Of a stretch of DNA of 32,000 nucleotides, positions 8,960 through 24,685 are shown one piece after another. The notes under the pieces are model-generated. The model did not search any database. It was given only the letters and a program-made list of their open reading frames with translations, and was not told the origin of the DNA. Within the stretch, counting starts at the first letter, position 1. The number at the start of each line of letters is the position of its first letter. This stretch comes from Alkanindiges sp. WGS2144 (GTDB taxonomy: Bacteria; Pseudomonadota; Gammaproteobacteria; Pseudomonadales; Moraxellaceae): the NCBI RefSeq assembly GCF_043950625.1, contig NZ_CP171007.1; one strand, written 5' to 3'. Made by a program: the position numbers and the translations under genes.

Positions 8960-8963
8960 GTAA

Positions 8964-9308
8964 CTAATCTCCTAATGATTCAAGATGAAGTGCATATTGC
9001 TGATCAGCAATTGCTAATACCTCGTCATAAAATCGCTTTTTACTGCTTTTATCACCGATACAGAGCACAATAGCTTGACGTAATGGATCAAATGCAAAAA
9101 AAGCCCTCAGGGGTTTACCACGATGCTGAACACGCAGCTCTTTTATGTTGGTAAATTTCGAGTTATAGACAGTATCAACTAACGGTCTACCTAAACTGGG
9201 TTCTTGCTGCTCCAAGACGACCAATGCAGCCAAGACTTTCTCTTGTGTTGATTCATCTTGTTGTATAAGCCATTCGTTAAACAGATTTGTTGTGATTACT
9301 GTCCACAT
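8964..9308 (-). CDS. higB: RelE/ParE-superfamily toxin (HigB / phage Gp49-like)
   Basis: 114 aa. KELRVQHRGKPLRAFFAFDPLRQAIVLCIGDKSSKKRFYDE matches the Gp49-like HigB pattern (R..G...R.ff.....i.ll.g..K). It sits upstream of its HTH antitoxin. Confidence 0.8.
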   Translation of the reverse strand: MWTVITTNLFNEWLIQQDESTQEKVLAALVVLEQQEPSLGRPLVDTVYNSKFTNIKELRVQHRGKPLRAFFAFDPLRQAIVLCIGDKSSKKRFYDEVLAIADQQYALHLESLGD

Positions 9309-9327
9309 ATCACAGTAAAAATATAGA

Positions 9328-9450
9328 TTATAATATATATGTTATAAAAATTTCATAGCTGATGCAACCAATAACTGTAACAGCCCCAATTAAAACGGAC
9401 ACCTTTAATGAGGGGGTATTATCCAGCGCCCAGCAGATTTTATACATCCC
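9328..9450 (-). repeat. copy B1: duplicated 3' end of the small membrane-protein gene at 10876..11121 (39-codon ORF 9328..9447)
   Basis: The core 9376-9443 aligns with 10913-10979 with 5 substitutions and one 1-nt indel (hand alignment). The minus-strand ORF reads MYKICWALDNTPSLKVSVLIGAVTVIGCISYEIFITYIL. The other copy reads ...NKICWALCNTPSLKVSVLVG.... Weaker similarity continues to both stop codons. Confidence 0.7.
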
Positions 9451-9502
9451 AAAACCCAACTGTGCGATAATTAGCCTAAACTCTCGCTAGAGATATGCGC
9501 TC

Positions 9503-9691
9503 ATGCCCATATTTTCAAAATCAGCAACGACTGCCCTGGCAATCCTGGCGGTTGATAATATTCGCTTAACGCCCGCATCCATGGCCTTACTGGCCGCACG
9601 TGACCGTGGCGAAATTAGCCGTGAGCGCTTTAAAGAGCAGGTGCGTCAGCGTGCTTACCGTCTTGCTGGTATTGGTAATCATACTGCCTGA
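9503..9691 (+). CDS. small VbhA-like (Fic-antitoxin-like) protein with no Fic partner in the window
   Basis: The 62-aa ORF aligns by eye to Bartonella VbhA: ALAsqrLEGlepdP....GE versus ALAILAVDNIRLTPASMALLAARDRGE. The inhibitory (S/T)xxxE(G/N) motif is degenerate here (IxxxDN). No Fic/DOC gene follows. Confidence 0.4.
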   Translation: MPIFSKSATTALAILAVDNIRLTPASMALLAARDRGEISRERFKEQVRQRAYRLAGIGNHTA

Positions 9692-9769
9692 TTATGTAAT
9701 GCATAAAATCAGACATGAGTACTGATGATCATTACTATGCAACATTTGCTTGTTATGCTTTCGGCTTGG

Positions 9770-10003
9770 TTACAGCAGCGCAGTCAAATTTTCCTTGCCG
9801 TATTTAAAGTGGTTGACCCAGACAAGCGTGTTAATTAAAACATTCATTAATGAAAGTCTGAACCACGTCTGGGAATTGCCTGCATGTTTGCTGTGCTGCC
9901 ACCTAGCATCGCCAATCGCTTGGCAGCCTGGATATGAATAAATGTTTTAATGGCCTCACGGAATAAGTCCGCTTTATCCATGATGCTATCTGCCAGCTCT
10001 CAT
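9770..10003 (-). pseudogene. decayed vapBC module: internally deleted RHH-type VapB relic plus a 25-codon PIN stub
   Basis: The minus strand reads ATG AGA (10003), is then out of frame, and resumes as ELADSIMDKADLFREAIKTFIHIQAAKRLAMLGGSTANMQAIPRRGSDFH-stop (9999..9847). This resembles the VapB pattern eLl.eA...tg....eav..AL..l. An ATG overlapping that stop (TAATG, 9847) opens MNVLINTLVWVNHFKYGKENLTALL-stop (to 9770). That is a PIN N-terminus truncated after 25 codons, with N where the first catalytic D normally sits. Confidence 0.55.
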
Positions 10004-10185
10004 GGCAATCTCCAGTCAGCACTGGTTTAATTTGCAGGTAGTGTAGTGAAATCAGGGAGCTACACTAGACCTATGGCTCCCAATAGTCCACGAACTTACA
10101 TTTAAGCAACATGCTGTATAGACAATATGCCTACATAGTGCCAATATTGTGATACTAATTTGCGTGTCCTATAGGTGACTCTACT

Positions 10186-10443
10186 ATGTCAAACGCTAGC
10201 ATAAATATCCGAACTGATGCAGAGTTAAAAGCAAAAGCACAGCAAACCTTAGCTGATCTCGGTCTTGATATGACCACAGCCATTAATATATTTCTTAATC
10301 AGGTTGTTTATAGAAATGGTATCCCTTTTGAAATTACCAAACCACCAAAGGTTACAACTAAGCTAGGTGGCTGGGAGGATAAAATCAAGCTGGCTGAGGA
10401 TTTTGATGAGCCGTTAGATGATTTTCAAGAGTATATGAGATAA
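10186..10443 (+). CDS. RelB/DinJ-family antitoxin
   Basis: 85 aa. INIRTDAELKAKAQQTLADLGLDMTTAINIFLNQVVYRNGIPFEI is the canonical RelB/DinJ RHH domain. The acidic tail is LAEDFDEPLDDFQEYM. Its stop overlaps the PIN start by 1 nt (TAATG). Confidence 0.85.
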   Translation: MSNASINIRTDAELKAKAQQTLADLGLDMTTAINIFLNQVVYRNGIPFEITKPPKVTTKLGGWEDKIKLAEDFDEPLDDFQEYMR

Positions 10444-10835
10444 TGCGTTCAGCAGCATATTTGTTAGATACACATGCAGTATTATGGATGGCTAGTCGTC
10501 CTGATAAATTGTCCGAGTTGGCTAAACAAGCCATTCTTGATCATCGTTACGATAAGTATGTTAGTGTTGCTTCAGCTTGGGAAGTGGCTATAAAACTGAG
10601 CCTTGGGAAGCTGGAACTCTCAGGTGGCGTGAAGGAGTTTTTCAGAATTTGTAGTAGCAATGGTCTAGCTATACTTAATATTGAAAAAGCTCATCTCCAA
10701 CTAGTCGAGACGCTTCCTTTTATTCATAGAGATCCATTTGATCGATTACTTATTGCCACGGCTACGAGAGAAAACCTTACTTTAATTAGCGCAGATAGTC
10801 ACGTAAACCAATATGCAGTACCATGTTTATGGTAA
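10443..10835 (+). CDS. vapC: PIN-domain toxin (VapC family), paralogous to 7825..8214
   Basis: 130 aa with YLLDTHAVLW, SAWEVAIK and LPFIHRDPFDRLLIATA...LISAD. These motif blocks match those of the PIN toxin at 7825..8214. Confidence 0.85.
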   Translation: MRSAAYLLDTHAVLWMASRPDKLSELAKQAILDHRYDKYVSVASAWEVAIKLSLGKLELSGGVKEFFRICSSNGLAILNIEKAHLQLVETLPFIHRDPFDRLLIATATRENLTLISADSHVNQYAVPCLW

Positions 10836-10875: not shown

Positions 10876-11121
10876 TTAATACATATATATCACAGGGAAA
10901 ATAATCACTAGATGTAACAGCCCAACTAAAACGGATACCTTTAATGAAGGGGTATTACACAGCGCCCAGCAGATTTTATTCACCCGTTTCGGGAGGTTAA
11001 TAGCCGTACCCAGCGCTTGCTCATGAGCCAGCTTACCTTGAATAATCACATTGAAATCAACTGGCTCACCGTGAGTCATGATGCCATGCGTGCAGCTTCT
11101 ATTGCGGGAGAGCAAGGTCAA
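10876..11121 (-). CDS. hypothetical small protein with hydrophobic C-terminus (TTG start in track; may be shorter or a remnant)
   Basis: I recognise no family for this ORF. Its C-terminal third (KICWALCNTPSLKVSVLVGLLHLVIIFPVIYMY) is the repeat copy B2 (core 10913-10979). There is no clear RBS. Confidence 0.35.
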   Translation of the reverse strand: MTLLSRNRSCTHGIMTHGEPVDFNVIIQGKLAHEQALGTAINLPKRVNKICWALCNTPSLKVSVLVGLLHLVIIFPVIYMY

Positions 11122-11475
11122 TATCGGCTAATGCAGCGCCTGTTTTTGTTTAATTATTGCTTAGCCGTTGCTTGATTCGGATTATATTTAAAGGGAAGTT
11201 GAGGCTTAGCCTAAATAAGCAACATCGCCAGTATGTCCATACTGATATGCTGGTTAAAACAGTATTAGTCCAATTTGACTGTTTCGATACAAGTGCTGGC
11301 TACACTAAGATGAAATATTCTAAACGATTAATTCAAATTTTTTAATCAATATATGACAAAATACGTCACTTTTTTCATTTATAGGTCATTGTATTTTTTT
11401 GGAAAAGTGTGATAGCTTCATCAACTTTGCCTAATTTAGCGAATTTTTAATGCGGTACAAAACTTGTACTTGCCT

Positions 11476-11491
11476 TGGCATAACAAATGCA
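11476..11491 (+). promoter_or_regulatory. sigma-54 (-24/-12) promoter of pilA
   Basis: TGGCAT-aacaa-ATGCA compared with the consensus TGGCAC-N5-TTGCW. It ends 70 nt upstream of the ATG. A 6-bp-arm palindrome gtacaa-aac-ttgtac (11455-11469) lies just upstream. Confidence 0.75.
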
Positions 11492-11561
11492 ATATAAAAA
11501 GCGTGTGCAAAAAGGTTGGCGTTGACAACCGACAATAGAGTTTATTTCTTGGGAGAATTTT

Positions 11562-11975
11562 ATGAACGCACAAAAAGGTTTTACATTAATTGAGTTGATG
11601 ATCGTTGTTGCGATCATTGGTATTTTGGCTGCAATTGCGATTCCTGCTTATCAGAACTATACCAAACGTTCTCATGTTTCTGAAGGCTTGAGCTTAGCTG
11701 GCGGTGCAAAAGCTGCTGTAACAGAAGCTTTTTCTTCTAGAGGAGAATGGCCAACTAATAACGCAGCGGCTGGCTTACCTGCAGCGGCAAGTATCAAAGG
11801 TAACGCAGTTCGCAGTGTCACGGTAGGCGGTAGTACTATTACCATTGTTTATAATACCAAAGTTGCAGCTGGTGCTGACTTAGTTCTACAAGGCGCCTCT
11901 ACTTCAGGTGGCGTAACTTGGACTTGTACTGGTGGCTCTTTGAAATCTGAGTTACGTCCAGCTAACTGTCGTTGA
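11562..11975 (+). CDS. pilA: type IVa major pilin (prepilin, 6-aa leader)
   Basis: MNAQKG|[27 protein letters not shown] is the class III signal with G-1, F+1 and E+5. There is a C-terminal disulfide loop (C122...C136). Strong RBS (gggagaatttt ATG). The protein ends ...PANCR, so it has no C-terminal Ser. Confidence 0.93.
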
Positions 11976-11988
11976 TAGCTATATTTGA

Positions 11989-12017
11989 AAAAGCATCTAT
12001 TGATTAGATGCTTTTTT
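11989..12017 (+). terminator. intrinsic terminator after pilA
   Basis: aaaagcatcta (11989-11999) pairs with tagatgctttt (12005-12015) around a 5-nt loop. The T-run is 12012-12017. Confidence 0.8.
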
Positions 12018-12036
12018 ATTTTATGAGTATAATATA

Positions 12037-13968
12037 TTGAAGAAGGTTATTCCTTATATCTTGCTGTATTTTAGCTTAGCTATTACAGTGCTTATTTATC
12101 AGCAAGGTCTGCATGGGAATTATATTTTTGATGATGTAGCAAATATATTAGAAAATAAAAAACTATCCATTAATTCTCTGGACTGGCTTAGCCTACAGGC
12201 AGCTTGGGATTCGGGTGACGCAGGACCTTTAGGCCGCCCCATCAGTATGTTGTCTTTTGCTTTAAATCATTATTTTTCTGGTTTTGATCCTTATTACTTT
12301 AAACTTACTAATTTAATTATTCATTTATTTAACGGATTATTGGTTTTTTTAATTAGTTCAAAAATACTCCAATGGCTAAGTAAACGCTATCAGAAAGTTA
12401 GCTTGCACAGTGCGCCATGCTTGGCTGTATTAGTAAGCACTGTATGGCTGGTGCATCCACTCAACCTAACTAGCATACTCTATGTTGTACAACGTATGAC
12501 TAGTCTTTCGGCATTATTTGGTTTGCTAGCGGTATTAATTTACTGTACATGGCGCATGCGCACAGTAACCTGGTTAAGTACAGGAGTTGCTACTTTCGGA
12601 CTAGGCTTAGCTTTGTTAGCGTCTATTTACAGCAAAGAATCTGGTATTTTATTTATTTTACTAATTTACTGGATAGAGCTTATTTTATTCCAAGCCAAGA
12701 ATAATAGTTTTCAATCAATTTATATTAAGCAAATTAAGTTAATTTATTTATTATGGGGACTCGTGGTAGTTAGTTTTTTAGTATTTTTATATTTGCTCCC
12801 ACCATACCTGAATCCCGCCAATTTTGCCCGTCGTGAATTTTCTTTAGATGAACGATTACTCACTGAGGCCAGAGTAATCTTCTTTTATTTGAAAATGTTT
12901 TTTTATCCGCTGCTTTCAGATTTAAGCTTATATCATGATGATTTTCCAATCTCAAAATCAATTACACAACCTATCACCACACTATATTCCTTAGTTGGCT
13001 TAGTAGGTATTAGTGCTGTCTGCATCGCTTTAATCAAAAAACATCCAATGTTGCTTTTTGCATGGGGCTGGTATGTAATTAGCCAGTTATTAGAATCAAC
13101 ATTTATTAGTCTGGAACTTATACACGAACATCGCAACTATTTTGGCACTACTGGCTTTGTCATTACTGCTATTTATTACCTAGCGCAAATTAAAAACGAA
13201 AAAATACAGCCTTTTATTTACCTGCTTGGTGGGCTTTATGTGGCGAATTTAGCATTAACGACTTGGCAACGTGCAGAGGTTTGGTCTAATTTGGTAGATC
13301 ATGCTGCTTATGAGGCAACTATGCATCCTAAATCTGACCGCGCTAATTATCAGCTTGCGCGTATTTATATGAACCTAATGCAGCTTCATCCTGAACAACA
13401 GGCCTACTATGCTGATTTAGCAAGAAAAGCATTGATACAATCCAAACACAGCTATATGCCAGCTAATGGTGCATGGTTTGCTGAATTACATTTTAATTCT
13501 TATTTGAATCAACTCCCAGCACAACAAACCATTGATGAGTTGATATGGCGATTAAAACATGAACCCTTTCAAAATAATAATATAAGTTTTTTAAGTGCAT
13601 TCGCTAACTGTCAAATAAGAGGCTCTTGTAAAGTGCCGCATGACCAAGCAGTGCTTATCATTGCAGCAGGTTTGGATAATTTAGGCGTGGGGAATGATCT
13701 CAAGTCGGAGATTTATAAGCTATTAACGCAATACTATATAGGCGTTATTTCAGACTTTGAAAAGGGCGAGGAGTTTATGCAGCATGCAGTGGCTTTGCAT
13801 GAAGATGTAAATGGGCGGCTTTTATTTGCCCAGGTTTATCGTCTGCAGGGTAAGTATGGTCAGGCCAATGCCCAATTACAGCGTGCCAAGCAATTGGATA
13901 AACGCCAAATCTGGTATAAGGAAATAGCAATTGAGCAAAGAAATTTGCGACAAGCAGAAGCCAAATGA
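12037..13968 (+). CDS. polytopic GT-C-like glycosyltransferase with C-terminal TPR domain (TfpW / PMT / TMTC-like); candidate pilin glycosyltransferase
   Basis: 643 aa with a TTG start. The first ~400 aa contain many hydrophobic segments. YIFDD (D32-D33) follows TM1, where GT-C enzymes carry their acidic motif. LYVVQRMTSLSALFGLLAVLIY resembles the DUF1736/TMTC segment. The soluble C-terminal ~220 aa has TPR-like repeats (ANYQLARIYMNLMQ..., LLFAQVYRLQGKYGQANAQLQRAKQLD). The gene lies directly downstream of pilA. Confidence 0.65.
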   Translation: MKKVIPYILLYFSLAITVLIYQQGLHGNYIFDDVANILENKKLSINSLDWLSLQAAWDSGDAGPLGRPISMLSFALNHYFSGFDPYYFKLTNLIIHLFNGLLVFLISSKILQWLSKRYQKVSLHSAPCLAVLVSTVWLVHPLNLTSILYVVQRMTSLSALFGLLAVLIYCTWRMRTVTWLSTGVATFGLGLALLASIYSKESGILFILLIYWIELILFQAKNNSFQSIYIKQIKLIYLLWGLVVVSFLVFLYLLPPYLNPANFARREFSLDERLLTEARVIFFYLKMFFYPLLSDLSLYHDDFPISKSITQPITTLYSLVGLVGISAVCIALIKKHPMLLFAWGWYVISQLLESTFISLELIHEHRNYFGTTGFVITAIYYLAQIKNEKIQPFIYLLGGLYVANLALTTWQRAEVWSNLVDHAAYEATMHPKSDRANYQLARIYMNLMQLHPEQQAYYADLARKALIQSKHSYMPANGAWFAELHFNSYLNQLPAQQTIDELIWRLKHEPFQNNNISFLSAFANCQIRGSCKVPHDQAVLIIAAGLDNLGVGNDLKSEIYKLLTQYYIGVISDFEKGEEFMQHAVALHEDVNGRLLFAQVYRLQGKYGQANAQLQRAKQLDKRQIWYKEIAIEQRNLRQAEAK

Positions 13969-14064
13969 TACAACAGTTATTAAGCTACTACCTGCTACAT
14001 GACTGCTAAACGGACAACAAGCTTATGCTAGAATGTTAAAGCCAGCCGTCTAAAGGATAAAGTA

Positions 14065-14916
14065 TTGAAACTAAGCATTGTGCTGCCTGCCAAAAATGAA
14101 TCGGAAGCAATTGAAACAACTATTCAGGATATTGTTAAGCTAGCAATTGCCCATGAAATCATCGTGGTCAATGATGGTTCAACCGACAGCACTGCCGAAA
14201 TCGCTCGTCAGGCAGGCGCAAAAGTACTCAACCACCCCTACTCTAAGGGGAACGGTGCAGCCATTAAATCAGGGGCACGCGCTGCAACTGGTGATGTGAT
14301 CGTTTTTATGGATGCCGATGGACAACACGATCCACAAGATGTTCCAAGATTATTAGAAAAAATAAATCAAGGCTACGATTTAGTAGTGGGCGCACGGCAA
14401 AAAGGCTCTCAAGCCAGTCTTGGGCGTGGGGTAGCTAATAAGCTATATAACAACCTAGCCACTTATATGACTGAGCATCAAGTAGAAGATTTAACCTCAG
14501 GGTTTAGAGCAGTACGGGCAGATGAGTTTAGAGAGTTTTTGTACCTATTGCCTAATGGGTTTTCCTACCCCACTACGAGTACTATGGCCTTTTTTCGGGC
14601 TGGCTACTCGGTGACTTATGTACCTATTCATGCAGCTAAGCGTATTGGTAAAAGTCATATTAACCCAATAAAAGATGGGGTACGCTTTTTTTTAATCATT
14701 TTTAAAATTGCTACATTGTTTTCACCGCTCAAAATGTTTTTACCTATTGCTGTAGTGCTCTTCTTGATGGCAACAGGGTGGTATGGCTATACCCTGTGGG
14801 ATGCTGGACGGTTTACCAATATGAGTGCGTTACTATATACAGGCAGTGTAATGATTTTTTTAATGGGATTAATTTCAGAGCAGATCACAGCGTTGATGTA
14901 TAAAGATAGTCAATAA
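14065..14916 (+). CDS. GT2 polyprenyl-phosphate glycosyltransferase (GtrB/ArnC/DPM1-like)
   Basis: 283 aa, TTG start preceded by aaggat. LSIVLPAKNE...IIVVNDGSTDSTAEIA...KGNGAAIKSG...VFMDADGQHD carries the DxD motif. Two C-terminal TM helices (FFLIIFKIATLF...PIAVVLFLMATGWYGY; ALLYTGSVMIFLMGLISEQI) complete the architecture of lipid-phosphate sugar transferases. Confidence 0.85.
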   Translation: MKLSIVLPAKNESEAIETTIQDIVKLAIAHEIIVVNDGSTDSTAEIARQAGAKVLNHPYSKGNGAAIKSGARAATGDVIVFMDADGQHDPQDVPRLLEKINQGYDLVVGARQKGSQASLGRGVANKLYNNLATYMTEHQVEDLTSGFRAVRADEFREFLYLLPNGFSYPTTSTMAFFRAGYSVTYVPIHAAKRIGKSHINPIKDGVRFFLIIFKIATLFSPLKMFLPIAVVLFLMATGWYGYTLWDAGRFTNMSALLYTGSVMIFLMGLISEQITALMYKDSQ

Positions 14917-14925
14917 GATATTTTA

Positions 14926-16149
14926 ATGGGTCCTATCACAAAATCCACCTTACGTACCAGTTCAGTATTAAGTTTACGTTTGTTAGTTCAAGCGGGAACA
15001 TTATTACTCGTTGCTCGTATGCTTGGGCCAGACCAATTTGCAGCTTTTGCAGGGATTGCAGCCCTAGCTGTCTTATTAGGTACCTTTTCAACCTTCGGTA
15101 CACATCTAGTTTTACTGGCGGAGGTTGCTAAAGATAAAGTACAACGTCAGCAAGTGCTGCGTTATGCTGTGCCTACCACACTCATTACAGGTAGCCTATT
15201 ATTTCTTACTTATATCGCTGTATGCATATTATTTTTTAAAAATATTGAGTTACCCCTATCGGTCATACTCTGCATTGGTTTTACAGAAACTGTTTTATTC
15301 CCCTTATTTTTAATACCTGCCGTTGAGGAATTAGCATTAGAAAAAACCGCACGCTCGCAACTTTTAATGATTTTTCCTTTAGCCTTGCGCACTCTAGCAG
15401 CAGGTGTAGTGATGCTACTTGCTGTAAGCCAGCCATTGGTCATTTTTGCCTGGCTATACCTCGTTAGTGCTGTGTTAGCGTTACTGTGCATGAAATGGTA
15501 TAAGCCAAACGCCTGGCTTAGCCCTAGTGAGTGGCAACTAGCGAATAAGCAGGAATTAAAATACAATGCAGGTTATGCAACGCTAGCATTGACTGCCGCT
15601 GGTCCGAGCGAGCTTGATAAGATGTTGGCTGCAAAACTATTGCCACTAGAGATAGGTGGGTTATATATTGCAGCGTCAAGAGTTATTGGTGCAGCGACTT
15701 TACCTGTGACAGCATTATTACTTGCTGCAATGCCTCGGTTATTTCGTGGTCATGCCGAAACTCAAGCGCAATCCCAACGCTTGAATCGCTGGATATTAGG
15801 CTCTGTTTTGATTTATGGGATTATTTTAGCTGGGCTGTTATGGCTATTTGCACCATGGGTAGAGTGGCTGTTTGGGCAAAAATACCATGGCATAGCGGAA
15901 ATATTGCAATGGCTATGTTGGGTTATACCTGCATTGGCACTTCGGATTAGTCTAGCGAGTATGTTGATGACTAAGGAGAAGCCTTGGCTACGGGCTGGCA
16001 TTGAAGTTTTTGGAATGTCGGCTCTTGTGATTGGAGCTACTATTCTTTATCCTCTGTTAGGGATAGCGGGAATGGTATTAGCATTGGCCATTTCAGAGTG
16101 GGGGATGGCTATTGTTGGTTGTTTTTTTGCTTTGTATAGATCTACTTAA
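14926..16149 (+). CDS. Wzx/MOP-superfamily flippase-like membrane protein
   Basis: 407 aa and almost entirely hydrophobic. The N-terminus LSLRLLVQAGTLLLVARMLGPDQFAAFAGIAAL matches the Polysacc_synt/Wzx pattern (l..l..i.lar.Lgp..fG.f). There is no large periplasmic loop of the kind seen in Wzy or ligases. Confidence 0.7.
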   Translation: MGPITKSTLRTSSVLSLRLLVQAGTLLLVARMLGPDQFAAFAGIAALAVLLGTFSTFGTHLVLLAEVAKDKVQRQQVLRYAVPTTLITGSLLFLTYIAVCILFFKNIELPLSVILCIGFTETVLFPLFLIPAVEELALEKTARSQLLMIFPLALRTLAAGVVMLLAVSQPLVIFAWLYLVSAVLALLCMKWYKPNAWLSPSEWQLANKQELKYNAGYATLALTAAGPSELDKMLAAKLLPLEIGGLYIAASRVIGAATLPVTALLLAAMPRLFRGHAETQAQSQRLNRWILGSVLIYGIILAGLLWLFAPWVEWLFGQKYHGIAEILQWLCWVIPALALRISLASMLMTKEKPWLRAGIEVFGMSALVIGATILYPLLGIAGMVLALAISEWGMAIVGCFFALYRST

Positions 16150-16164
16150 GGATATATATTCATA

Positions 16165-17007
16165 ATGGGCATAGATGTTCATGCATTGCAGCTACTTCAA
16201 TATAATAAACAATATAATAAGGGGTTAGGCAAAACGCTTACACTGGGCAGATTAGCTATACTATTGGGTTCCAGATTAGCAAAGAAATGGGCAGGAACAG
16301 ACCAAGGCGCGTGGTGCGAGGATTTATTGATTAAAAATTTTAATGCAGAGCAAGTAGATTCTATCGATAATTCAGGCTACGAGGACGCAAGTATTATATA
16401 TGACTACAATTGCCCAGTACCTAATGTACTTAAGAATCAATATGATACTGTATTAGATTTTGGCTGCTCAGAACATATATTTGACGTTGCACAAGCCTTT
16501 AAAAATACGATTAGTGTATGCAAAGTAGGTGGGATTATATTGCATATACTGCCTACTGATGGTTTTTGTGGACACGGATTTTATCAGTTTACCCCTGAAT
16601 TTTTCTTTTCTCTTTACTCCCAGGAGAATGGCTTTAAAAATACGGAAGTTTTTCTTTCTGATTTATACAATCCAAAAAAATGGTATAAAGTAAACAGACC
16701 AAATAATGGACAACGTATTAATATTAGAACAACCAATGAAACATATGTAATCGTTAGAACTGAAAAGAACAGTGATAAAGAAATATTTTTACAGCAATCT
16801 GACTATACTCATTTGTGGAATGAAGGAAATAGTAAAACTGCCAAGCCCTATAAGATAGGTAAAATTACTCGAATTCGAGAAGCTCTAAGTTTCTCATCAT
16901 TTATGGTAAAACTATTTATGTTACTAGTTGCACGCATGCCTTCAAATGGAACAAAAAAACTCAGTCAACATAAATCATTAAGCCTATTTAAGCCACCTTC
17001 GATATGA
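16165..17007 (+). CDS. class I methyltransferase-fold protein with an atypical motif I (function uncertain)
   Basis: 280 aa with an aagga RBS. YDTVLDFGCSEHIFDVAQAFKNTISVCKVGGIILHILP matches the fD.V.....lEHv.d.......i...LkpGG.l motif of Methyltransf_11/23-type enzymes. VDSIDNS fits motif II. The Gly-rich SAM loop is not evident (GKTLTLGRLAI). Confidence 0.45.
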   Translation: MGIDVHALQLLQYNKQYNKGLGKTLTLGRLAILLGSRLAKKWAGTDQGAWCEDLLIKNFNAEQVDSIDNSGYEDASIIYDYNCPVPNVLKNQYDTVLDFGCSEHIFDVAQAFKNTISVCKVGGIILHILPTDGFCGHGFYQFTPEFFFSLYSQENGFKNTEVFLSDLYNPKKWYKVNRPNNGQRINIRTTNETYVIVRTEKNSDKEIFLQQSDYTHLWNEGNSKTAKPYKIGKITRIREALSFSSFMVKLFMLLVARMPSNGTKKLSQHKSLSLFKPPSI

Positions 17008-17036
17008 TATCGCTTTAAAGCCTAATGGGTGTTAGG

Positions 17037-18137
17037 TTAAGTACATTTGTTAGCTGTTAAAATCACTTCCCAAGCGTCAGCAGCCTTTCCTACAGTAAAA
17101 GCTTTAGCACGCTGTAATAATTCTTGCGAAGATACAAGGCTTTTGTCTATCAATCCCTGAGAGATACCATTTGCTAAAGCTAGAGGATCTTCATTCCCAA
17201 CCAAAATACCCCAGCGACCATCTTCTAAAATTTCCCTAGGACCATGCGGGCAATTTGTTGCAATAATTTGGCAACCGCTTGCCAATGCTTCAACCAATAC
17301 TAAACCAAACCCCTCAAAACGAGAAGATAATATAAATAAATCAGCCTGCCTCAGAACGTCTAACGGCGTATCTGTGTGGCCCCGTAAGGAGATACGCTGC
17401 TGCAAGTCATATTTATCAATCAAATTTTGCAGAGCTTGCTTATCTTCACCATTGCCCCAGATATCTAGGTGCCAAGGTTGAGGAACTTTAGTCATTGCTT
17501 CTATAAGGATATCAAAACCTTTTTGGCGAGTTAATCGTCCAAGTGCAACAATGTTAGGTATTCTATTATTTGATATCTCTTTCGGCGCTTTGGGAATAAG
17601 CTGTGTATCATCTAAAACAGGGTTATAAATGGTAATAACTTTATTTTGAACTACTTTAAATTTATCTAGTATATCCTGTCGCACACCATTAGAAACAGCC
17701 ACAACGGCATCACATTTTTTATATACAATAGATGCAAATATTTTATCTAGCTGAAATCGCAATCGCCCTATTATATTTGGCTCGGCAGTAATTAAATCAT
17801 GTGTAGCATGTACACCGTGTGCCCAAAAAACTTTTTTACCTGAACGGTTTATGGCTAGGTGAGTTAAAAAGCCAATATCAGCAAATGCAGTGATAATATG
17901 GGTAGGCCGCCATATTTGTATTAGTTTGGAAAGATTAGGAACGAACTGATGCAGACCACCAGCAGCGATTTCATATATAGGACATAAGTCTTGAGCTTCT
18001 TGTAGAAACTCACCATAGGCTCGACGTAGAGCAAAAGCACATTCATGACCACGTCGCTGCAATTCGGCGACCAAACGCAGCGTCACACGCTCAACGCCCC
18101 CAGTAACCATACGCGGTAGAACAAATAGGATTTTCAT
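17037..18137 (-). CDS. GT4-family (GT-B) glycosyltransferase
   Basis: 366 aa. MKILFVLPRMVTGGVERV is a GT4 N-terminal motif. LGRLTRQKGFDILIEA and SRFEGFGLVLVEALASGCQIIATNCPHGPREIL carry the EX7E region. The start overlaps the upstream gene by 4 nt. Confidence 0.85.
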   Translation of the reverse strand: MKILFVLPRMVTGGVERVTLRLVAELQRRGHECAFALRRAYGEFLQEAQDLCPIYEIAAGGLHQFVPNLSKLIQIWRPTHIITAFADIGFLTHLAINRSGKKVFWAHGVHATHDLITAEPNIIGRLRFQLDKIFASIVYKKCDAVVAVSNGVRQDILDKFKVVQNKVITIYNPVLDDTQLIPKAPKEISNNRIPNIVALGRLTRQKGFDILIEAMTKVPQPWHLDIWGNGEDKQALQNLIDKYDLQQRISLRGHTDTPLDVLRQADLFILSSRFEGFGLVLVEALASGCQIIATNCPHGPREILEDGRWGILVGNEDPLALANGISQGLIDKSLVSSQELLQRAKAFTVGKAADAWEVILTANKCT

Positions 18138-19234
18138 AAGTCAACTTGAGAAATAAGTAGTTTATTTATCTTTCCTTTTACTTGAAGAGTAATCTCATTC
18201 CAATACATATAGCTCGGTTTATTAACTAGAAAACAATCTTTTAGCTGCTTAACTATAGCAGACGCTAGACTTTCAGGATTATTTGGTTCTGCTAAATAAG
18301 GCTCTAACTCTGCAGCTTGGTTTGGAAAGTTTGCAAACAAATTTGGTGAGCGTGTCGCAACGATAGGACGTTGCATCATCATGGCTTCTCCTATTTTATT
18401 AGGCGCAGCTGCATCAAGAAAAGCAGAGCGACGATGTGGAATAGCGAGTGCATCACAAGCGGCTAGTGCATAAGGCACCTCTCTAAAAGGTACATTACCT
18501 AGGTAGCGTATACTCGGTTGGCTCAAATCTAAGTTTGGATCAGATCGTCCACCTAGTAGTAGCATTATATCATGACCTTGCTGGCGTAATATTTTTACAG
18601 CATCTATTAAATCTTGCACACCTCTATCGGGCTCCATACTACCAAAATAGCCCACAAATGTTTGTGCTAGAGGTAGCTGTAGCTTAGTCCGTGCTTCTGT
18701 TTTGTCTATAGTCGTAAAATGCTTGGCATCTATGCCATTACTCAAGATTGTATCGTATTGCGGTTGCCCCAGTTTCTGTAATAATGTATGACTAGCAAAA
18801 AAACGCATATCTGCTTTTTTTAATAAGAAGCCAAATAGGTCAAATCCTAGTGGCTTCATATATCCAGAGAATTCATCATATTTATCGTATACATCAAATA
18901 TAAATTTTGCTTTATGCGATATTGCTAATATATAACCCAGTAGACCAATATAACAATCTCCACTTGCTATAATTACATCATATTTTTCTTGCTCAATGCT
19001 TTCTTGAATATATTGGTAGAACACTGCTCCTGTTTTTACAGGTGTAGAGGTGATTTTTAAGTGTTTGTCAGTGGCTTTTATTTTTTTTGATGAATGATAG
19101 TCAATAAGCCAGAGCTTAATTTTTATATCTTGCTCTTTGGATAAATGTAAGGGTAACTGATAAATACGACCGAATTTTTCAGTTAGCGCATCACGGTTAG
19201 TATTGAAGCGTTTGCCTATGAAAAGGATATTCAT
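18134..19234 (-). CDS. GT-B fold glycosyltransferase (GT4-like, divergent)
   Basis: 366 aa. MNILFIGKRF..., FVGYFGSMEPDRGVQDLIDAV and APNKIGEAMMMQRPIVATRSPN have a GT1/GT4-like layout. The classic EX7E is less clear than in its neighbours. Confidence 0.65.
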   Translation of the reverse strand: MNILFIGKRFNTNRDALTEKFGRIYQLPLHLSKEQDIKIKLWLIDYHSSKKIKATDKHLKITSTPVKTGAVFYQYIQESIEQEKYDVIIASGDCYIGLLGYILAISHKAKFIFDVYDKYDEFSGYMKPLGFDLFGFLLKKADMRFFASHTLLQKLGQPQYDTILSNGIDAKHFTTIDKTEARTKLQLPLAQTFVGYFGSMEPDRGVQDLIDAVKILRQQGHDIMLLLGGRSDPNLDLSQPSIRYLGNVPFREVPYALAACDALAIPHRRSAFLDAAAPNKIGEAMMMQRPIVATRSPNLFANFPNQAAELEPYLAEPNNPESLASAIVKQLKDCFLVNKPSYMYWNEITLQVKGKINKLLISQVDL

Positions 19235-19248
19235 ATAATTGGAATTCT

Positions 19249-20427
19249 CTATAAATTTTCTACTACATAATGTAAGGATCTCCCAAAATTAAACCATTCA
19301 AATTGCTTAGCAAAATTTTGAATATCATCCTTATTTTGAATATTATCCTTTGACAATGGACTTTCTAACAATAAAATAATCTGTTTACTTAGTTTTATAT
19401 AATTATTTCTTTCTACTAAATAACCAGAAACTCCATCTTTTACTGCGTCCACAACACCTCCTGTTGCAAAGCCAACAGTAGGTAAGCCATGGGCAGCGGC
19501 TTCAATGGCGACCATACCAAAACCTTCGGGATCATCAGGAATATGGCGTACAGGAAACACATGTATGTCTGATACTTCATACACAATAGCTAACTGTTCC
19601 TTATCAGTTATTACACCAAGAAATACTATATGACTTTCAATCTTATGATTTCTAGCCACCTTTAATATCTCTTCCTGAGTTTGCATACCTGCAGCTAAAG
19701 AATTTCTAGGTGATTCACCAACTACAACCAAAATAGTATTAGGCTCGTGTTTTACTATTTCAGGCAAAGAATATTTAACAAACTCTTTTAAACCCTTACG
19801 TGTGGTTAGGCGCCCTACAGAGAGAAGGATTTTTTTATTTTTAAGATTATACGTTTGTCTGAATGCCTGAACCTTTTCCAATGGCTGAAAAGCCGTCGGT
19901 AGCTCAACTCCTGGATAAACAATACTAATAATTTCTTCCCGTATTCCAGCATTACTGGCTAACACTTTGGTAGGCCTACTATTAACAATAATATGATCTA
20001 ATTTTTTAAAAAAAGGAATCCAAAAAATTTGGTAGCTTTTTTTGGGGACAGTAATGTCAAAGCCATGTAGATAAGCTATTGACTGTGCTCCGCAAAGTTT
20101 GCTAGTAAACCATGCCAACGGTGCAGTTAAGCCGCTACCAGCCAGAATTACATCTGGTCTGTCTATTAAAGCAAACCAAATAGACTTGATAAAAGCAACA
20201 AACATAAATAAAGGCAAGGGTTTTAGGGGTGCTTCACTTAGTTTTATGTTTTTTGGCTTTAACTTCTTTGACCCTCTAGGGCCTATCACCTTTACCTCAG
20301 TATATTTACTGAGTTCATCAGCCATATGCCAATTGAGGCGCTCCATACCCCCTACAAGAGGCGGCAAATTGCGAGTAATTATTAAAATCTTTCTAGAAGA
20401 GCTTGCTTTATTTGAAAGGGTTGTCAT
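19249..20427 (-). CDS. GT4-family (GT-B) glycosyltransferase
   Basis: 392 aa. ILIITRNLPPLVGGMERL, VGRLTTRKGLKEFV and PEGFGMVAIEAAAHGLPTVGFATGGVVDAVKDGVSGYLV carry the EX7E region. The start overlaps the end of the acyltransferase gene by 20 nt. Confidence 0.85.
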   Translation of the reverse strand: MTTLSNKASSSRKILIITRNLPPLVGGMERLNWHMADELSKYTEVKVIGPRGSKKLKPKNIKLSEAPLKPLPLFMFVAFIKSIWFALIDRPDVILAGSGLTAPLAWFTSKLCGAQSIAYLHGFDITVPKKSYQIFWIPFFKKLDHIIVNSRPTKVLASNAGIREEIISIVYPGVELPTAFQPLEKVQAFRQTYNLKNKKILLSVGRLTTRKGLKEFVKYSLPEIVKHEPNTILVVVGESPRNSLAAGMQTQEEILKVARNHKIESHIVFLGVITDKEQLAIVYEVSDIHVFPVRHIPDDPEGFGMVAIEAAAHGLPTVGFATGGVVDAVKDGVSGYLVERNNYIKLSKQIILLLESPLSKDNIQNKDDIQNFAKQFEWFNFGRSLHYVVENL

Positions 20428-22342
20428 ATCTTTTTAGGTACTCAATTGCTATTTCCTTAGAGCCAGCATAAGTAAGATGCTGACTATCCCGATAGAGTGG
20501 GATTCCATTTAGCGAGGAATAACATTTTACGCTATCACAAATAATACGGTTAAGATCTAGTACAATAAGCTCAGGATAGCGTTGCTGTACTTTATTTAAT
20601 ATATCTAACCATTCAGCAAAGTCTGCATCATACTTCACTTTATCAAATGTACAATCATCTTTGACAAAATCTTTTCTCAAATTGCAGTTAATGTCTACAT
20701 CGACCAAGATCGGATTATCATTAATCAGGACAGGGGCGGCGCCCGTTTGAGCAATAGCCTTAATAGCTTTCTCTAAACCTAGGATAAAGTTTTGCTTAGA
20801 GTTTTTTTCTTCTAAAGAACCATCTTCGGCTAAAGAGTATATATTTCTTTCCCAATTATGAGGAAAAAACCCCCCCATAATTACAAACCTAAATTTATTA
20901 TTTTTGATCAATGTTTGATTGGATGAATTAATTTGATAAAAATTTTGATTGACCTGAATTTCTCCTGTTTGCATGTTCCGAACTGATCTATTCATACCAG
21001 GCAGGTAAGCCGTAGAGGAAAAAGTAACTTCATAACCTTTGAGCTTCGCGTTCTTTGCCAAATAATCAACAAAACCTCTCTGGGCATTAGCATGACTGTC
21101 GCCTACTAATAGAAAGTCTATTTTTTCTTTGTTAGTTTCTCCTAAAAAGCAGTCCGAATGTGGATGATTGCTTTGGTCTATACATTTAATCTGGTTAAAG
21201 TCATCTATAACTTGGCTAGGTAATGCTGTTGCTTGTTTGGCATTTTGTAGAATAGAAAAATTGTTCACACCAAAAGCTAATACAATTATTAAGCTAGGGA
21301 GAGCAAATAAAGTTTGAATAGGTTTATGCCGATATAAGAAATAAAGCTTAATTTTTTTCTCTATTAATTCATAAGTTAGGCCTGAAAAAGCAATTGTAAG
21401 AACTATAACAGCAATAGAAGTGAGGCTGGTAAGAGGTACTGATAACAGAGATAAATAGACAATAATAGGCCAATGCCATAAATACATGGGATAGGAAATC
21501 TTTCCTATGTATTGTATTGGCTGAAAAAATTTACCTGCAAAACCATGGGCGCCATAAATAAATAGTGCAGCACCTAGACAGGGTGCAAGAGCAGTGTATG
21601 AGGGAAATAGGGAGTTTCGCGTAATTAATAGACTGGATACAATTATTAAAGTAAGTGAAGCTATCGCCATAAGAGTTGAGATTTGGGGACTAAACTTCTT
21701 TGGGGGCAATAAAGTAATAAGAGCACCTATGCAAAACTCAAAAATGCGCGAGGGCAATAAATAGTAAGCTCCTATAGGATCTTTTAAGGCGGAAATATAA
21801 GAAACAACAAGTGACAGTAGAGTAATAAAGATTAGAACGATTAGCCTCGATTTACCTTTAATATTAAGTAGAAACAAAAAAAACACTGGCCATACTAAAT
21901 AAAATTGCTCTTCTAAGCTTAATGACCATATATGAAGTAGAGGAGTTGACCTTGCAGAAATACTAAAATAGTCATTGAGTAAAGTATAATAATAAATATT
22001 TGAGGTAAGGGTAACAGAAGCAACAGCAGTTTTAAGGAATTCCTTCCATTCACCTTCAGTTAGAATAGAGTAAAATACGATAGAGCTGCTAAAGATAACT
22101 GTGAAAAAAGCTGGAGCTAAGCGAATAATGCGGCGTTGATAAAAATCTTTAAATGAAAAGCAAGTGGTTGTTTGCCTCTCTTGAGAAATAGCTCTGGTGA
22201 TGAGGAATCCAGAAATGACTAAAAAAACGTCAACTCCAATGAATCCACCTTTAAAATAGGAGAATTCAAGATGATGAAAAATAACTAATAGTACAGCTAA
22301 AGCTCTAAGGATATCGATGTGGGGTAAATACGTGGTTTTCAT
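20408..22342 (-). CDS. acyltransferase-3 (AT3) membrane domain fused to a periplasmic SGNH domain (OafA/OatA-like O-acetyltransferase)
   Basis: 644 aa. N-terminal YLPHIDILRALAVLLVIFHHL...GFIGVDVFLVISGFLIT is the AT3 signature, followed by ~10 TM segments. The C-terminal soluble domain has SGNH block I (LLVGDSHANA) and a distal DSQHLT. Confidence 0.85.
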   Translation of the reverse strand: MKTTYLPHIDILRALAVLLVIFHHLEFSYFKGGFIGVDVFLVISGFLITRAISQERQTTTCFSFKDFYQRRIIRLAPAFFTVIFSSSIVFYSILTEGEWKEFLKTAVASVTLTSNIYYYTLLNDYFSISARSTPLLHIWSLSLEEQFYLVWPVFFLFLLNIKGKSRLIVLIFITLLSLVVSYISALKDPIGAYYLLPSRIFEFCIGALITLLPPKKFSPQISTLMAIASLTLIIVSSLLITRNSLFPSYTALAPCLGAALFIYGAHGFAGKFFQPIQYIGKISYPMYLWHWPIIVYLSLLSVPLTSLTSIAVIVLTIAFSGLTYELIEKKIKLYFLYRHKPIQTLFALPSLIIVLAFGVNNFSILQNAKQATALPSQVIDDFNQIKCIDQSNHPHSDCFLGETNKEKIDFLLVGDSHANAQRGFVDYLAKNAKLKGYEVTFSSTAYLPGMNRSVRNMQTGEIQVNQNFYQINSSNQTLIKNNKFRFVIMGGFFPHNWERNIYSLAEDGSLEEKNSKQNFILGLEKAIKAIAQTGAAPVLINDNPILVDVDINCNLRKDFVKDDCTFDKVKYDADFAEWLDILNKVQQRYPELIVLDLNRIICDSVKCYSSLNGIPLYRDSQHLTYAGSKEIAIEYLKRYDNPFK

Positions 22343-22469
22343 TTAAATATATTGTTTTTACTATGGCTAAGCTGTTTTGATGAATACAAATAATAATACT
22401 TAAGTGACATTTTTTACTACTAGAATTAATTTTCTGAATTTAAGCAGTTGATTTAGATGGTATTTTTTT

Positions 22470-22485
22470 TGGCATAAAAATTGCT
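22470..22485 (+). promoter_or_regulatory. sigma-54 (-24/-12) promoter of the second pilin gene
   Basis: TGGCAT-aaaaa-TTGCT compared with the consensus TGGCAC-N5-TTGCW. It ends 34 nt upstream of the ATG and is preceded by a T8 tract. RBS aaaagga at 22505-22511. Confidence 0.75.
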
Positions 22486-22519
22486 GATTATGCTAAGAAA
22501 TAAGAAAAGGATATAAATC

Positions 22520-22969
22520 ATGCCTAGTCAGCACGGCTTTACACTCATAGAGCTTATGATTGTGGTGGCAATTATTGGGCTTCTAGCTGCCATAGCCATT
22601 CCTGCCTATCAGAATTATACAGCACGGAGTCAGGTTGCGGAAGCATTGAACATGGCTAATGCTTTTAAAGGGGAAGTAGTTAGCTATTATGGTGAGTCTG
22701 GTACTTGTCCAACGATTACAGGTTTAGGACTGCCAGCCTCTGGTGATTTAAATGGCCGTTATATAGATTCTTTGTCTACTTCTACCCCACAAGGGGCAGT
22801 TTGTGCCATTACTTTTAACTTTAAATCAGCAGGAACAAATAGTGGGTTGAAAAATAAGCATCTGACCTTGGCTATGCTGGATATTAGCATTCAAGGTTCT
22901 GCACAGTGGCTATGTTCTTCTGAAGATATACAGCAAATTTATCTGCCCAGTACTTGTCGGGGTATCTAA
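22520..22969 (+). CDS. second type IVa pilin paralogue (four-cysteine, 149 aa)
   Basis: MPSQHG|[27 protein letters not shown] gives the same 6-aa leader length and processing site as pilA. The globular domain is unrelated in sequence. Cysteines sit at precursor positions 63, 95, 132 and 146. The protein ends ...STCRGI. Confidence 0.9.
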
Positions 22970-23091
22970 AACTATTACAAATTATACGCCTTAATGACTT
23001 TAAGTTACACCGCCTCAACATTCTACTAACAGATATATTCACAGTTGGGGGTTAATATTATTGTTATCCCAAGATTCAAAGACCCCCTTCA

Positions 23092-23118
23092 GCCCGCCCC
23101 CCGCGGGCTTTTTTTTGG
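23092..23118 (+). terminator. intrinsic terminator after the second pilin gene
   Basis: agcccgc (23092-23098) pairs with gcgggct (23104-23110) around a ccccc loop. A T-run of 7-8 follows. Confidence 0.8.
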
Positions 23119-23163: not shown

Positions 23164-23568
23164 TTAAGTGTCAAACCAGTTGAGGCATTGCAAACCTGTA
23201 ACTCGTCTAAATTCCCGTATATTACGCGTCACGAGCTGTCCATGTACAGACAGTGCTGTTGCTGCAATTAATACATCATGGGCGCCAATGGGCGTACCCA
23301 ACTTTTCCAGATCGACCCTGACCTTCGCTGCTATTTGAGCGACCTGCTCATCAAAGGGAATCACCCGAACATATTGTAAAAAGTGCGCTAGGGCTTGCAA
23401 ACGTGGCTTGGCTTGCGAGGGCGCTAAGCGTCGTAAGCCGTATTGCAATTCATAAACCACGATGGCAGGTACAGCAACTTGCTCAGGTGTGGTCGCTTCC
23501 AAAGCAGCTACAACACACGGTTCGCCTCGAAAATAATAACTAATCGTATTGGTGTCTAAGACAAGCAT
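23164..23568 (-). CDS. vapC: PIN-domain toxin (VapC family)
   Basis: 134 aa. MLVLDTNTISYYFRG is the PIN N-terminus, with IVVYELQYG and AHDVLIAATALSVHGQLVTRNIREF. It overlaps the upstream antitoxin stop by 1 nt. Confidence 0.85.
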   Translation of the reverse strand: MLVLDTNTISYYFRGEPCVVAALEATTPEQVAVPAIVVYELQYGLRRLAPSQAKPRLQALAHFLQYVRVIPFDEQVAQIAAKVRVDLEKLGTPIGAHDVLIAATALSVHGQLVTRNIREFRRVTGLQCLNWFDT

Positions 23569-23801
23569 TAAAATATAATCCGATCTGGGTCTTTTCCTTC
23601 CTGTAAGGTTTCATCCCGCAAGGGAAAGTCAGTAAATGACCCCGCCAGTTGCGTTAGAGTAACAGGCCATTGCTGCCTGGCATGTTTTTTTATCAGGTCA
23701 GCCACCCATTTGCTGTTGGATACCCCTGATAGTTTTGCCGATTGCCGCAGTAATTGTTCAATTTCATCATCTAGATATAAAGTAATTTGTGACATGTTCA
23801 T
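23568..23801 (-). CDS. vapB: ribbon-helix-helix (CopG/VapB-like) antitoxin
   Basis: 77 aa. ITLYLDDEIEQLLRQSAKLSGVSNSKWVADLIKKH fits the RHH pattern of a beta-strand followed by two helices. It is translationally coupled to the PIN gene. Confidence 0.7.
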   Translation of the reverse strand: MNMSQITLYLDDEIEQLLRQSAKLSGVSNSKWVADLIKKHARQQWPVTLTQLAGSFTDFPLRDETLQEGKDPDRIIF

Positions 23802-24447: not shown

Positions 24448-24685
24448 GGCAAACCTCACAATATTGTTTTTTAGCATCAAGGCTTAAGGTACGCCAAAAA
24501 CTGTATTTCTTCGAGTGCTTTATGGAACTGCAAATGAAAATAACAATCAGATGAAATAGTTTTGTCTAAGCTTGGCAGGATATTAACGGTTCGTAGTGCT
24601 GTAGATGCGCCGCAGCAATTTTGACTATATGCTGTGCTACACTGTTAAGTTGAAATCAGGAGTCATTCTGCACTGGAGCAAAATA

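Follow-up and report, generated by a model that had tools for sequence, protein, structure and literature searches.

A 32,000-nucleotide (nt) stretch of the chromosome of Alkanindiges sp. WGS2144 (contig NZ_CP171007.1), hereafter the window, contains two type IV pilin genes with a set of glycan genes between them, including a gene for a membrane glycosyltransferase of the putative GT-C fold that ends in a TPR (tetratricopeptide repeat) domain. This enzyme of 643 amino acids (aa) is the defining gene of the system and had been overlooked in a first-pass annotation of the same DNA. The reading that we consider probable has three parts: the cassette built around it uses a sugar donor of the lipid-phosphate kind to glycosylate the pilus, the second pilin is a resident gene left without its oligosaccharyltransferase (OTase) partner, and both pilins are driven by PilR and sigma-54. 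This type IV pilin locus is hypervariable and belongs to an Acinetobacter-like (Moraxellaceae) chromosome, flanked on one side by gltBD, LemA and TPM genes and on the other by bfr-ridA-spoT. Genes were mapped from a listing of open reading frames (ORFs) together with Pfam and NCBIfam scans, and labels such as L001 or L082 denote the related genome loci that were compared with the window. The features that carry the argument are the following:

11562 to 11975, plus strand: pilA1, type IVa major-type prepilin of 137 aa; Pfam Pilin PF00114 (E = 1e-21) and N_methyl PF07963
11986 to 12018, plus strand: hairpin followed by a T-run between pilA1 and the GT-C gene; -17.5 kcal/mol, z = -5.1
12037 to 13968, plus strand: membrane GT-C-fold glycosyltransferase with C-terminal TPR domain, 643 aa; putative pilin O-glycosyltransferase, TfpW-like or TMTC-like
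14065 to 14916, plus strand: GT2 polyprenyl-phosphate glycosyltransferase (GtrB/ArnC/DPMS/AglJ-like); Pfam Glycos_transf_2, E = 2e-33
14926 to 16149, plus strand: MOP/Wzx-like flippase, 407 aa; Pfam Polysacc_synt at 28.7 bits (cut-off 28.2)
22520 to 22969, plus strand: second pilin, type IVa prepilin of 149 aa with four Cys; Pfam Pilin (E = 5e-18) and N_methyl

In this order, the cassette would consist of pilA1, an attenuator hairpin, the GT-C/TPR glycosyltransferase, a GT2 polyprenyl-phosphate sugar synthase and a flippase.

A GT-C/TPR glycosyltransferase next to pilA1

The GT-C gene lies directly 3' of pilA1 on the same strand, across a gap of 61 nt that holds the hairpin. An AlphaFold2 model of the whole protein (pLDDT 83.9, pTM 0.80) has many transmembrane helices followed by a helical repeat domain, the C-terminal part matching TPR structures. 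A Foldseek search with the whole protein was dominated by TPR matches, sequence and profile searches of the PDB returned TPR proteins only, and a weak TPR match is the sole family match of the ORF; on the membrane domain Pfam gave no match at E ≤ 10, and no NCBIfam model covers it either. The GT-C fold was sought by a separate model of residues 1-425, for which every structural match with a probability of at least 0.98 is a GT-C enzyme (STT3A, AglB, Pmt4). Just past the first transmembrane helix (residues 5-25), F31-D32-D33 are invariant in 24 homologues. Relatives of the protein number 1,797 at E ≤ 1e-5, and those nearest to it are Acinetobacter proteins labelled hypothetical, TPR or 'protein O-mannosyl-transferase', and among clusters at 50% identity 26,043 match at E ≤ 1e-3 and 4,731 at E ≤ 1e-30.

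A described enzyme of comparable build is TfpW, a pilA-linked 646-aa GT-C/TPR pilin glycosyltransferase with DDX and YX6PFX7P motifs that O-glycosylates the pilin with polyprenyl-phosphate-D-arabinofuranose as donor, and putative homologues of which stand beside pilA in several genera, including Acinetobacter venetianus (bioRxiv 10.1101/2020.04.19.049825). Like TfpW of Pseudomonas aeruginosa/paraeruginosa group IV (Pa5196, PA7), the window protein is encoded directly after pilA, has about 650 aa and joins a multi-helix GT-C part to a C-terminal TPR domain; moreover, TfpW carries DDX in its first periplasmic loop, and in the window protein D32-D33 follow the first helix. Unlike TfpW, it is adjoined by a GtrB/DPMS-type GT2 synthase gene, there is no tfpX, and none of the D-arabinofuranose pathway genes (DPPR synthase, DprE1, DprE2) was found among the window ORFs. 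Likened by published description, the window enzyme may work like TfpW, and we do not file it as a TfpW orthologue.

The cassette across genomes

A scan of 185,579 species genomes for relatives of the GT-C protein yielded 442 loci that encode one. Synteny was counted in the best 80 of these 442 loci, which cover many Gamma- and Betaproteobacteria, each count being taken over the loci that could be judged. In 68 of 73 loci the GT-C gene is preceded by a same-strand pilin gene at a distance of at most 500 nt, and GT2 follows the GT-C gene directly in 54/71 and stands anywhere in the locus in 60/71. The pilin-GT-C pair is also kept where glycan genes are not nearby, for instance in L034. At two loci lacking GT2 (L034, L039) arabinose-pathway genes were sought, and the neighbours had housekeeping or unrelated functions (in L034, for example, purD and argS); in L071, a fragment of a flippase gene and a sulfotransferase gene follow GT-C. 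In 12 of the 80 loci the pilin is followed by two GT-C/TPR paralogues in tandem (L008, L010, L015, L023, L031, L048, L054, L062, L068, L077 and others), which suggests two successive or alternative transfers.

Within the Acinetobacter-like loci the cassette probably has a history different from that of its surroundings. Its proteins are 83-91% identical to those of L082/L084, pilA1 itself being 85% identical to the L082 pilin, and DNA homology starts 10 nt ahead of the pilA1 start codon. Flanking proteins compared with relatives reach 46-52% (TPM), 67.5% (LemA), 67% (bfr) and 62-63% (SpoT), with GltD (87%) and RidA (81%) more conserved. Since the identity of the cassette so exceeds the 46-67% of most flanking proteins, horizontal exchange of the cassette is probable. 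The locus closest in housekeeping genes is L087 (SpoT 85%, RpoZ 92%), where the second pilin is 79% identical. The pilA1 cassette was probably imported or exchanged, with the second pilin as the resident gene. The low GC content of the island fits such an import: it is 34-42% between 12 and 22.5 kb and 45-51% in the flanks, and GC at third codon positions (GC3) is 0.26-0.37 in the island versus 0.41-0.54 in the flanks. No integrase or transposase was found in the window, and no long repeats bracketing the island. The first-pass annotation had proposed that each pilin and its adjacent module form an exchangeable cassette; this stands for pilA1 with its downstream genes, as the pilin-GT-C-GT2 order recurs across Gamma- and Betaproteobacteria, and falls for the second pilin.

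The second pilin

The second pilin belongs with its orthologues to a close-knit group from Acinetobacter, whose members have four Cys and share the C-terminal sequence YLPSxCRGI. In L001, L091, L092 and L093 the orthologue is followed, directly or past one inserted gene, by a Wzy_C/PglL-type O-oligosaccharyltransferase (a Wzy_C/PglL_A protein of 543-546 aa where complete), and bfr comes next in the three loci that reach far enough. In the window, a Wzy_C gene was found neither as a Pfam match nor as a remnant by tblastn at E ≤ 10. By position, the second pilin would correspond to this OTase-linked Acinetobacter pilin, and it appears to have lost the Wzy_C partner that is usual in other species. 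It ends in ...CRGI, without a C-terminal Ser, a residue that the TfpO type needs.

The full double arrangement is present in L091, where GT-C, GT2, flippase, variable glycan genes, second pilin, OTase and bfr succeed one another, which makes the two-pilin bracket a recurrent Acinetobacter architecture. The bracket that the earlier annotation had described is therefore found again in relatives, but it is not fixed: the second pilin is broken in L081-L086, the loci whose cassettes are the most similar to that of the window among those with readable flanks. In L082 (18626-19106) and L084 (18840-19164), its remains lie between the glycan genes and bfr, with the Gly at -1 lost, the N-terminal helix partly deleted and frameshifts, and the second pilin is a pseudogene in both. 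In L087, a gene for an IS1595-family transposase (165-839) stands directly 5' of the second-pilin orthologue, at the contig end.

It is possible, although we lean against it, that the second pilin is a specialised pilin of low abundance (such as a ComP-like competence pilin) or a decaying gene, with the fibre made from pilA1 only. Its fragmentation in L082 and L084, the missing OTase partner and the half-site that is left of its upstream palindrome all agree with this, as does the situation in Legionella, where only one of two linked major-type pilins is reported to build the fibre (PMC13170364). Yet in the window the gene is intact: its -24/-12 element fits the consensus at all 11 positions, and it has a ribosome-binding site as well as a leader peptide and a terminator. 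Moreover, compared with L087 and L089, its nonsynonymous divergence (dN) is 0.14-0.15 with saturated synonymous divergence (dS), and low dN with saturated dS indicates purifying selection. It is also the closer of the two pilins to the solved A. baumannii PilA structures, matching 5ihj and 5cfv, for which pilA1 has no match at E ≤ 1e-5.

Glycan genes and proposed mechanism

The remaining genes of the island are one on the plus strand and a convergent block on the minus strand:

16165 to 17007, plus strand: 280-aa protein, perhaps methyltransferase-like from a weak match to Pfam Methyltransf_23 (E = 0.009, below cut-off)
17037 to 22342, minus strand: convergent block of three GT4 enzymes and an AT3-SGNH acyltransferase, namely
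17037 to 18137, minus strand: GT4a glycosyltransferase; Pfam Glycos_transf_1 and Glyco_transf_4; protein 85% identical to the L084 homologue
18134 to 19234, minus strand: GT4b glycosyltransferase (Pfam); 91% identical to the L084 homologue
19249 to 20427, minus strand: GT4c glycosyltransferase (Pfam); frequent companion of the GT-C/GT2 cassette
20408 to 22342, minus strand: AT3-SGNH O-acyltransferase of 644 aa; Pfam Acyl_transf_3 (E = 4e-35) and SGNH (E = 3e-31)

The best NCBIfam matches of the GT2 protein are AglJ, dolichyl-phosphate hexose transferase, PpgS and ArnC, all under the family cut-offs, and its solved relatives are ArnC, DPMS and GtrB (E = 2e-19 to 5e-16), GtrB aligning over its full length; it would make the undecaprenyl-phosphate-sugar donor. 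The MOP protein is kept after GT2 in L081-L086 and L091, whereas L093 (340-2067) and L094 (3312-5021) have an ABC exporter of some 570 aa at this position. A slot that holds either a MOP protein or an ABC exporter suggests a flippase role, so that the MOP protein may flip the lipid-linked sugar. No match to the small GtrA-family flippase was found among the island ORFs of at least 120 aa that were scanned. A homologue of the 280-aa protein, 69% identical, has the same position in L091. As to the minus strand, the GT4a-GT4b DNA segment (17069-19234) is 89.7% identical to L084, and the best full-length solved relative of GT4c is PimB', a lipid-acting mannosyltransferase. GT4c homologues with 37-51% identity share a locus with GT-C/GT2 in distant taxa that lack the second pilin, and stand directly after GT2 in L010, L019 and L023; this companionship speaks against the earlier view of the minus-strand genes as the second pilin's own module. 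The AT3-SGNH enzyme, which we take to resemble OafA, was not found in the related loci examined and is thus a strain-specific addition.

Put together, these genes suggest the following route. GT2 would place a sugar on undecaprenyl phosphate at the cytoplasmic face, the neighbouring GT4 enzymes may extend the lipid-linked sugar and methylation may follow, and the MOP protein would flip the product. In the periplasm, the GT-C enzyme would then move the sugar to Ser/Thr of PilA1 while its TPR domain holds the pilin, and the AT3-SGNH enzyme may O-acetylate the glycan. GT4 enzymes, methyltransferase-like protein and acyltransferase would thus serve to elaborate the glycan. The overall logic would be that of TfpW, PMT/TMTC and Gtr three-component systems, with a pilin as acceptor and a hexose-type donor in place of D-arabinofuranose. 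The strain could in this way make two antigenically different pilus subunits, one glycosylated and the other probably not. Pilin glycosylation is reported to protect against pilus-specific phages (bioRxiv 10.1101/150227). Variable and horizontally exchanged glycan genes fit a diversifying pressure from such phages, and their evasion would be the benefit of the system.

The main rival to pilus glycosylation is that a surface polysaccharide, be it capsule, lipooligosaccharide or exopolysaccharide, is what the genes between the pilins synthesise or modify, the GT-C and GT2 proteins being an ordinary Gtr-type system that merely sits beside pilA. Polysaccharide loci typically contain GT4 enzymes, a MOP flippase and an acyltransferase of the AT3-SGNH kind, and three-component systems of GT2 and GT-C enzymes classically modify O-antigens and teichoic acids (PMC11127046). 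We nevertheless judge it unlikely. The near-universal linkage to a same-strand pilin gene across many genera counts against it, as do the persistence of the pilin-GT-C pair away from glycan genes and a hairpin between the two genes that is conserved in structure; in addition, the TPR domain and the precedent of TfpW point to a protein acceptor.

Beyond pilus glycosylation in the form proposed above, a broader version can be imagined, which we offer as speculation and do not expect to hold: the cassette would be a large protein O-glycosylation pathway in which an oligosaccharide is built on undecaprenyl monophosphate, started by GT2 and extended by GT4 enzymes, exported by a Wzx-like or ABC protein and transferred en bloc by the GT-C enzyme, with two differently glycosylated pilins in some Acinetobacter. 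If true, bacteria would have an O-linked equivalent of the AglJ/AglB route of archaea, and some Acinetobacter would run a GT-C pathway beside a Wzy_C pathway at one locus, a phage defence by two differently glycosylated pilins.

Promoters and regulatory sites

The following elements were located upstream and downstream of the two pilin genes:

11353 to 11369, plus strand: candidate activator (PilR-type) site ATGACAAAATACGTCAC, about 105 bp 5' of the pilA1 -24 element
11455 to 11469: palindrome GTACAA-AAC-TTGTAC, judged a chance occurrence
11476 to 11491, plus strand: sigma-54-type -24/-12 element of pilA1, TGGCAT-N5-ATGCA, TGGCATAACAAATGCA, 10/11 consensus positions
22404 to 22420, plus strand: degenerate half-site GTGACA at -116 from the second-pilin ATG, a chance-level match in the window
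22470 to 22485, plus strand: sigma-54-type -24/-12 element of the second pilin, TGGCAT-N5-TTGCT, TGGCATAAAAATTGCT, 11/11 consensus positions
23091 to 23109, plus strand: intrinsic terminator downstream of the second pilin, a GC-rich hairpin followed by T8, -18.2 kcal/mol

Both -24/-12 motifs are present where the first-pass annotation had placed them. With the consensus TGGCAC-N5-TTGCW (GG at -24, GC at -12, fixed spacing) and one mismatch allowed, the window has 7 matches against 5.1 expected, a count that is not significant by itself; a motif fitted post hoc gives 2 matches against 0.30 expected, and 2 were reached in 4 of 100 shuffles. The pilA1 element is kept as TTGGCAY-N5-RTGCW in all seven aligned Acinetobacter-type loci (7/7), whose upstream DNA has diverged apart from this element, the Shine-Dalgarno sequence and the palindrome GTGACA-N5-TGTCAC, and a -24/-12 element also lies 5' of most GT-C-linked pilins in other genera. 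It is therefore position and conservation, not the motif count, that support sigma-54 at the pilA1 promoter. For the orthologues of the second pilin, TGGCAT-N5-TTG(C/A)W stands 32-40 nt before the ATG in 6/7.

The candidate activator site at 11353 to 11369 aligns with GTGACA-N5-TGTCAC in all seven pilA1 upstream regions; since its pattern is at chance level in the window (6 matches against 9 expected, with up to three mismatches), conservation is what supports it, and the regulator that would bind it is presumed to be of PilR type. Palindromes of the type TGACA-N5-TGTCA are common to pilA1 and the second-pilin orthologues, and the full form TGACAAAATATGTCA lies at -117/-118 in two of the latter (L001, L093). 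In A. baumannii, expression of pilA is reportedly promoted by PilSR, a regulator pair that depends on sigma-54 (PMC8088505), and one PilR-type regulator with sigma-54 promoters probably drives both pilins here. The promoter type put forward in the earlier annotation is supported for pilA1 by conservation, and in part for the second pilin, four of whose seven orthologues have GA at -12. The palindrome at 11455 to 11469, which had been suggested as a regulator site, does exist, but it is one of ten inverted repeats of 6-7 nt within 400 bp and is not in the aligned orthologous promoters; it was rejected for that role.

That the -24/-12 matches are fortuitous in AT-rich sequence and both pilins are expressed from sigma-70 promoters is quite unlikely. 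The lack of enrichment of the relaxed consensus and the GA at -12 in several orthologues would allow it; on the other side, the pilA1 element is conserved in position and sequence in Acinetobacter-type loci and other genera, no sigma-70-like plus-strand site was found in either pilin intergenic region, and from 7 matches in 64,000 strand positions the chance of a correctly oriented match within 150 nt before both start codons is about 3e-4.

The hairpin that separates pilA1 from the GT-C gene probably acts as an attenuator or partial terminator. Hairpins of other sequence stand at the same place in L082 and L001, so that structure is conserved and sequence is not, and the arrangement matches an attenuator described for pilin accessory genes (PMC11841053).

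The two pilin genes compared

As the first-pass annotation had reported, the two pilins are complete ORFs in the same orientation, both with Pilin and N_methyl domains (N_methyl E = 6e-11 and 2e-10), about 10.5 kb apart. Both have a leader of six residues that ends in Gly (MNAQKG in pilA1, MPSQHG in the second pilin), Phe+1, Glu+5 and a hydrophobic N-terminal helix, as is characteristic of type IVa pilins, and residues 7-34 are identical bar one I/L. Over codons 6-34, the genes differ at 18/29 codons, all but one of them (17) by a synonymous change, and dS is saturated, in agreement with the earlier statement that this is not a recent duplication. The best solved relative of pilA1 is Neisseria PilE (E = 7e-29). 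The globular domains had been called unrelated, and this has to be corrected: they align at 28% identity (42% over the whole protein, E = 8e-34), the Pilin domain match reaches the C-terminus in both, with two Cys in pilA1 and four in the second pilin paired near the C-terminus, and they are best read as diverged homologues. The proposal of two alternative or co-assembled subunits under the same regulation, with glycosylation genes between them, agrees with two intact genes and a common promoter type, and had left out the GT-C enzyme.

It is very improbable that the second pilin serves pilA1 as a silent donor of sequence for antigenic variation by recombination, in the manner of Neisseria pilS and with the shared 5' segment (84% identical over 114 nt, in direct orientation) as anchor. 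Unlike silent cassettes, the gene is complete, with a promoter, a start codon and a leader of its own; it is under purifying selection, and it shares with pilA1 only short identical runs and saturated synonymous sites, with no sign of ongoing gene conversion.

Flanks and toxin-antitoxin modules

Outside the island the window is laid out as follows:

Left flank: gltB-gltD, metal hydrolase, LemA and two TPM proteins
7825 to 10835: three toxin-antitoxin (TA) modules between the TPM genes and pilA1
Right flank: vapBC, bfr, Uma2, ridA, spoT, rpoZ, rnr and tRNA-Leu, the latter being the sole match of an Rfam scan of the window

The three modules are of type II, namely Phd/PIN (7825-8471), Gp49(HigB-like)/HTH (8657-9308) and RelB/PIN (10186-10835), and a fourth, vapBC, lies at 23164-23801 right behind the second pilin; none of the four was seen at the same locus in L081-L086. 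A direct repeat of 65 nt, 89% identical (9385-9449 and 10921-10985), brackets the RelB/PIN module and may be a trace of its insertion. A gene of the Uma2 family, putatively restriction endonuclease-like, lies at 24605-25267 between bfr and the bfd/ridA region, and a Uma2 homologue is found directly 3' of the second pilin in L087 and L093; the gene seems to travel with the second-pilin end of the locus.

Comparison with known systems and significance

Several points weigh against pilus glycosylation by this cassette and its common regulation. The structural matches to GT-C enzymes are weak (E = 0.02-0.14), and the TfpW proline motif YX6PFX7P of periplasmic loop 4 is found in 0/272 family members, which have Y-x6-P-x8-H instead (Y284-x6-P291-L-x7-H300 in the window protein). 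GT4 enzymes use cytoplasmic nucleotide sugars, and their extending a monophosphate-linked sugar would be unusual in bacteria; GT4, flippase and acyltransferase genes could serve a polysaccharide instead, and acceptor, sugar and flippase role are all inferred. With regard to regulation, rpoN, pilR and pilS lie outside the window, the second pilin keeps the left half of its upstream palindrome and no more, and its orthologues with GA at -12 depart from the canonical GC.

Comparison with other systems places the cassette between known types. In Gtr three-component systems a GT2 enzyme loads polyprenyl phosphate and a GT-C enzyme uses the sugar outside the cytoplasm (PMC11127046), as proposed here; unlike those systems, the acceptor would probably be a pilin and not a polysaccharide, and a MOP or ABC exporter is present with no GtrA-family flippase. 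TMTCs also join a GT-C domain to TPR repeats (PMC7801869), whereas the membrane domain of the window protein matches neither the PMT nor the TMTC model of Pfam. With respect to the pilA-tfpO/comP-pglS OTase loci of Acinetobacter and Pseudomonas, the second-pilin orthologues have a Wzy_C/PglL_A gene near bfr and the window does not. PilA1 and PilA2 of Legionella pneumophila are, like the window pilins, two related major-type pilins at one locus, of which perhaps only one forms the fibre (PMC13170364); unlike them, the window pilins are far apart with glycosylation genes in between, and their ties, ancestral ones at least, are to two different mechanisms of glycosylation.

Neither a pair of linked pilins nor a sigma-54 promoter in front of a pilin is unusual; the interest lies in the widespread pilin-GT-C/TPR-GT2 cassette and in its coexistence with the remnant of a second pilin glycosylation module of a different mechanism. 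To our knowledge, TfpW, which is arabinofuranose-specific, is the only GT-C-type pilin glycosyltransferase studied. In the literature searched, no paper was found that characterises the GT2-coupled pilin-GT-C form, although pilA-linked TfpW homologues have been noted. The GT-C/GT2 cassette is far more widespread than TfpW, and its donor appears to be another one, made by GT2. How a pilus functions, how the immune system recognises it and how susceptible the cell is to phages are all shaped by pilin glycosylation, and pilin-specific transferases serve as tools for the engineering of conjugate vaccines. All in all, a strain that has both the cassette and an intact second pilin would be a natural test bed for two subunits of different surface chemistry, possibly under a single regulator.

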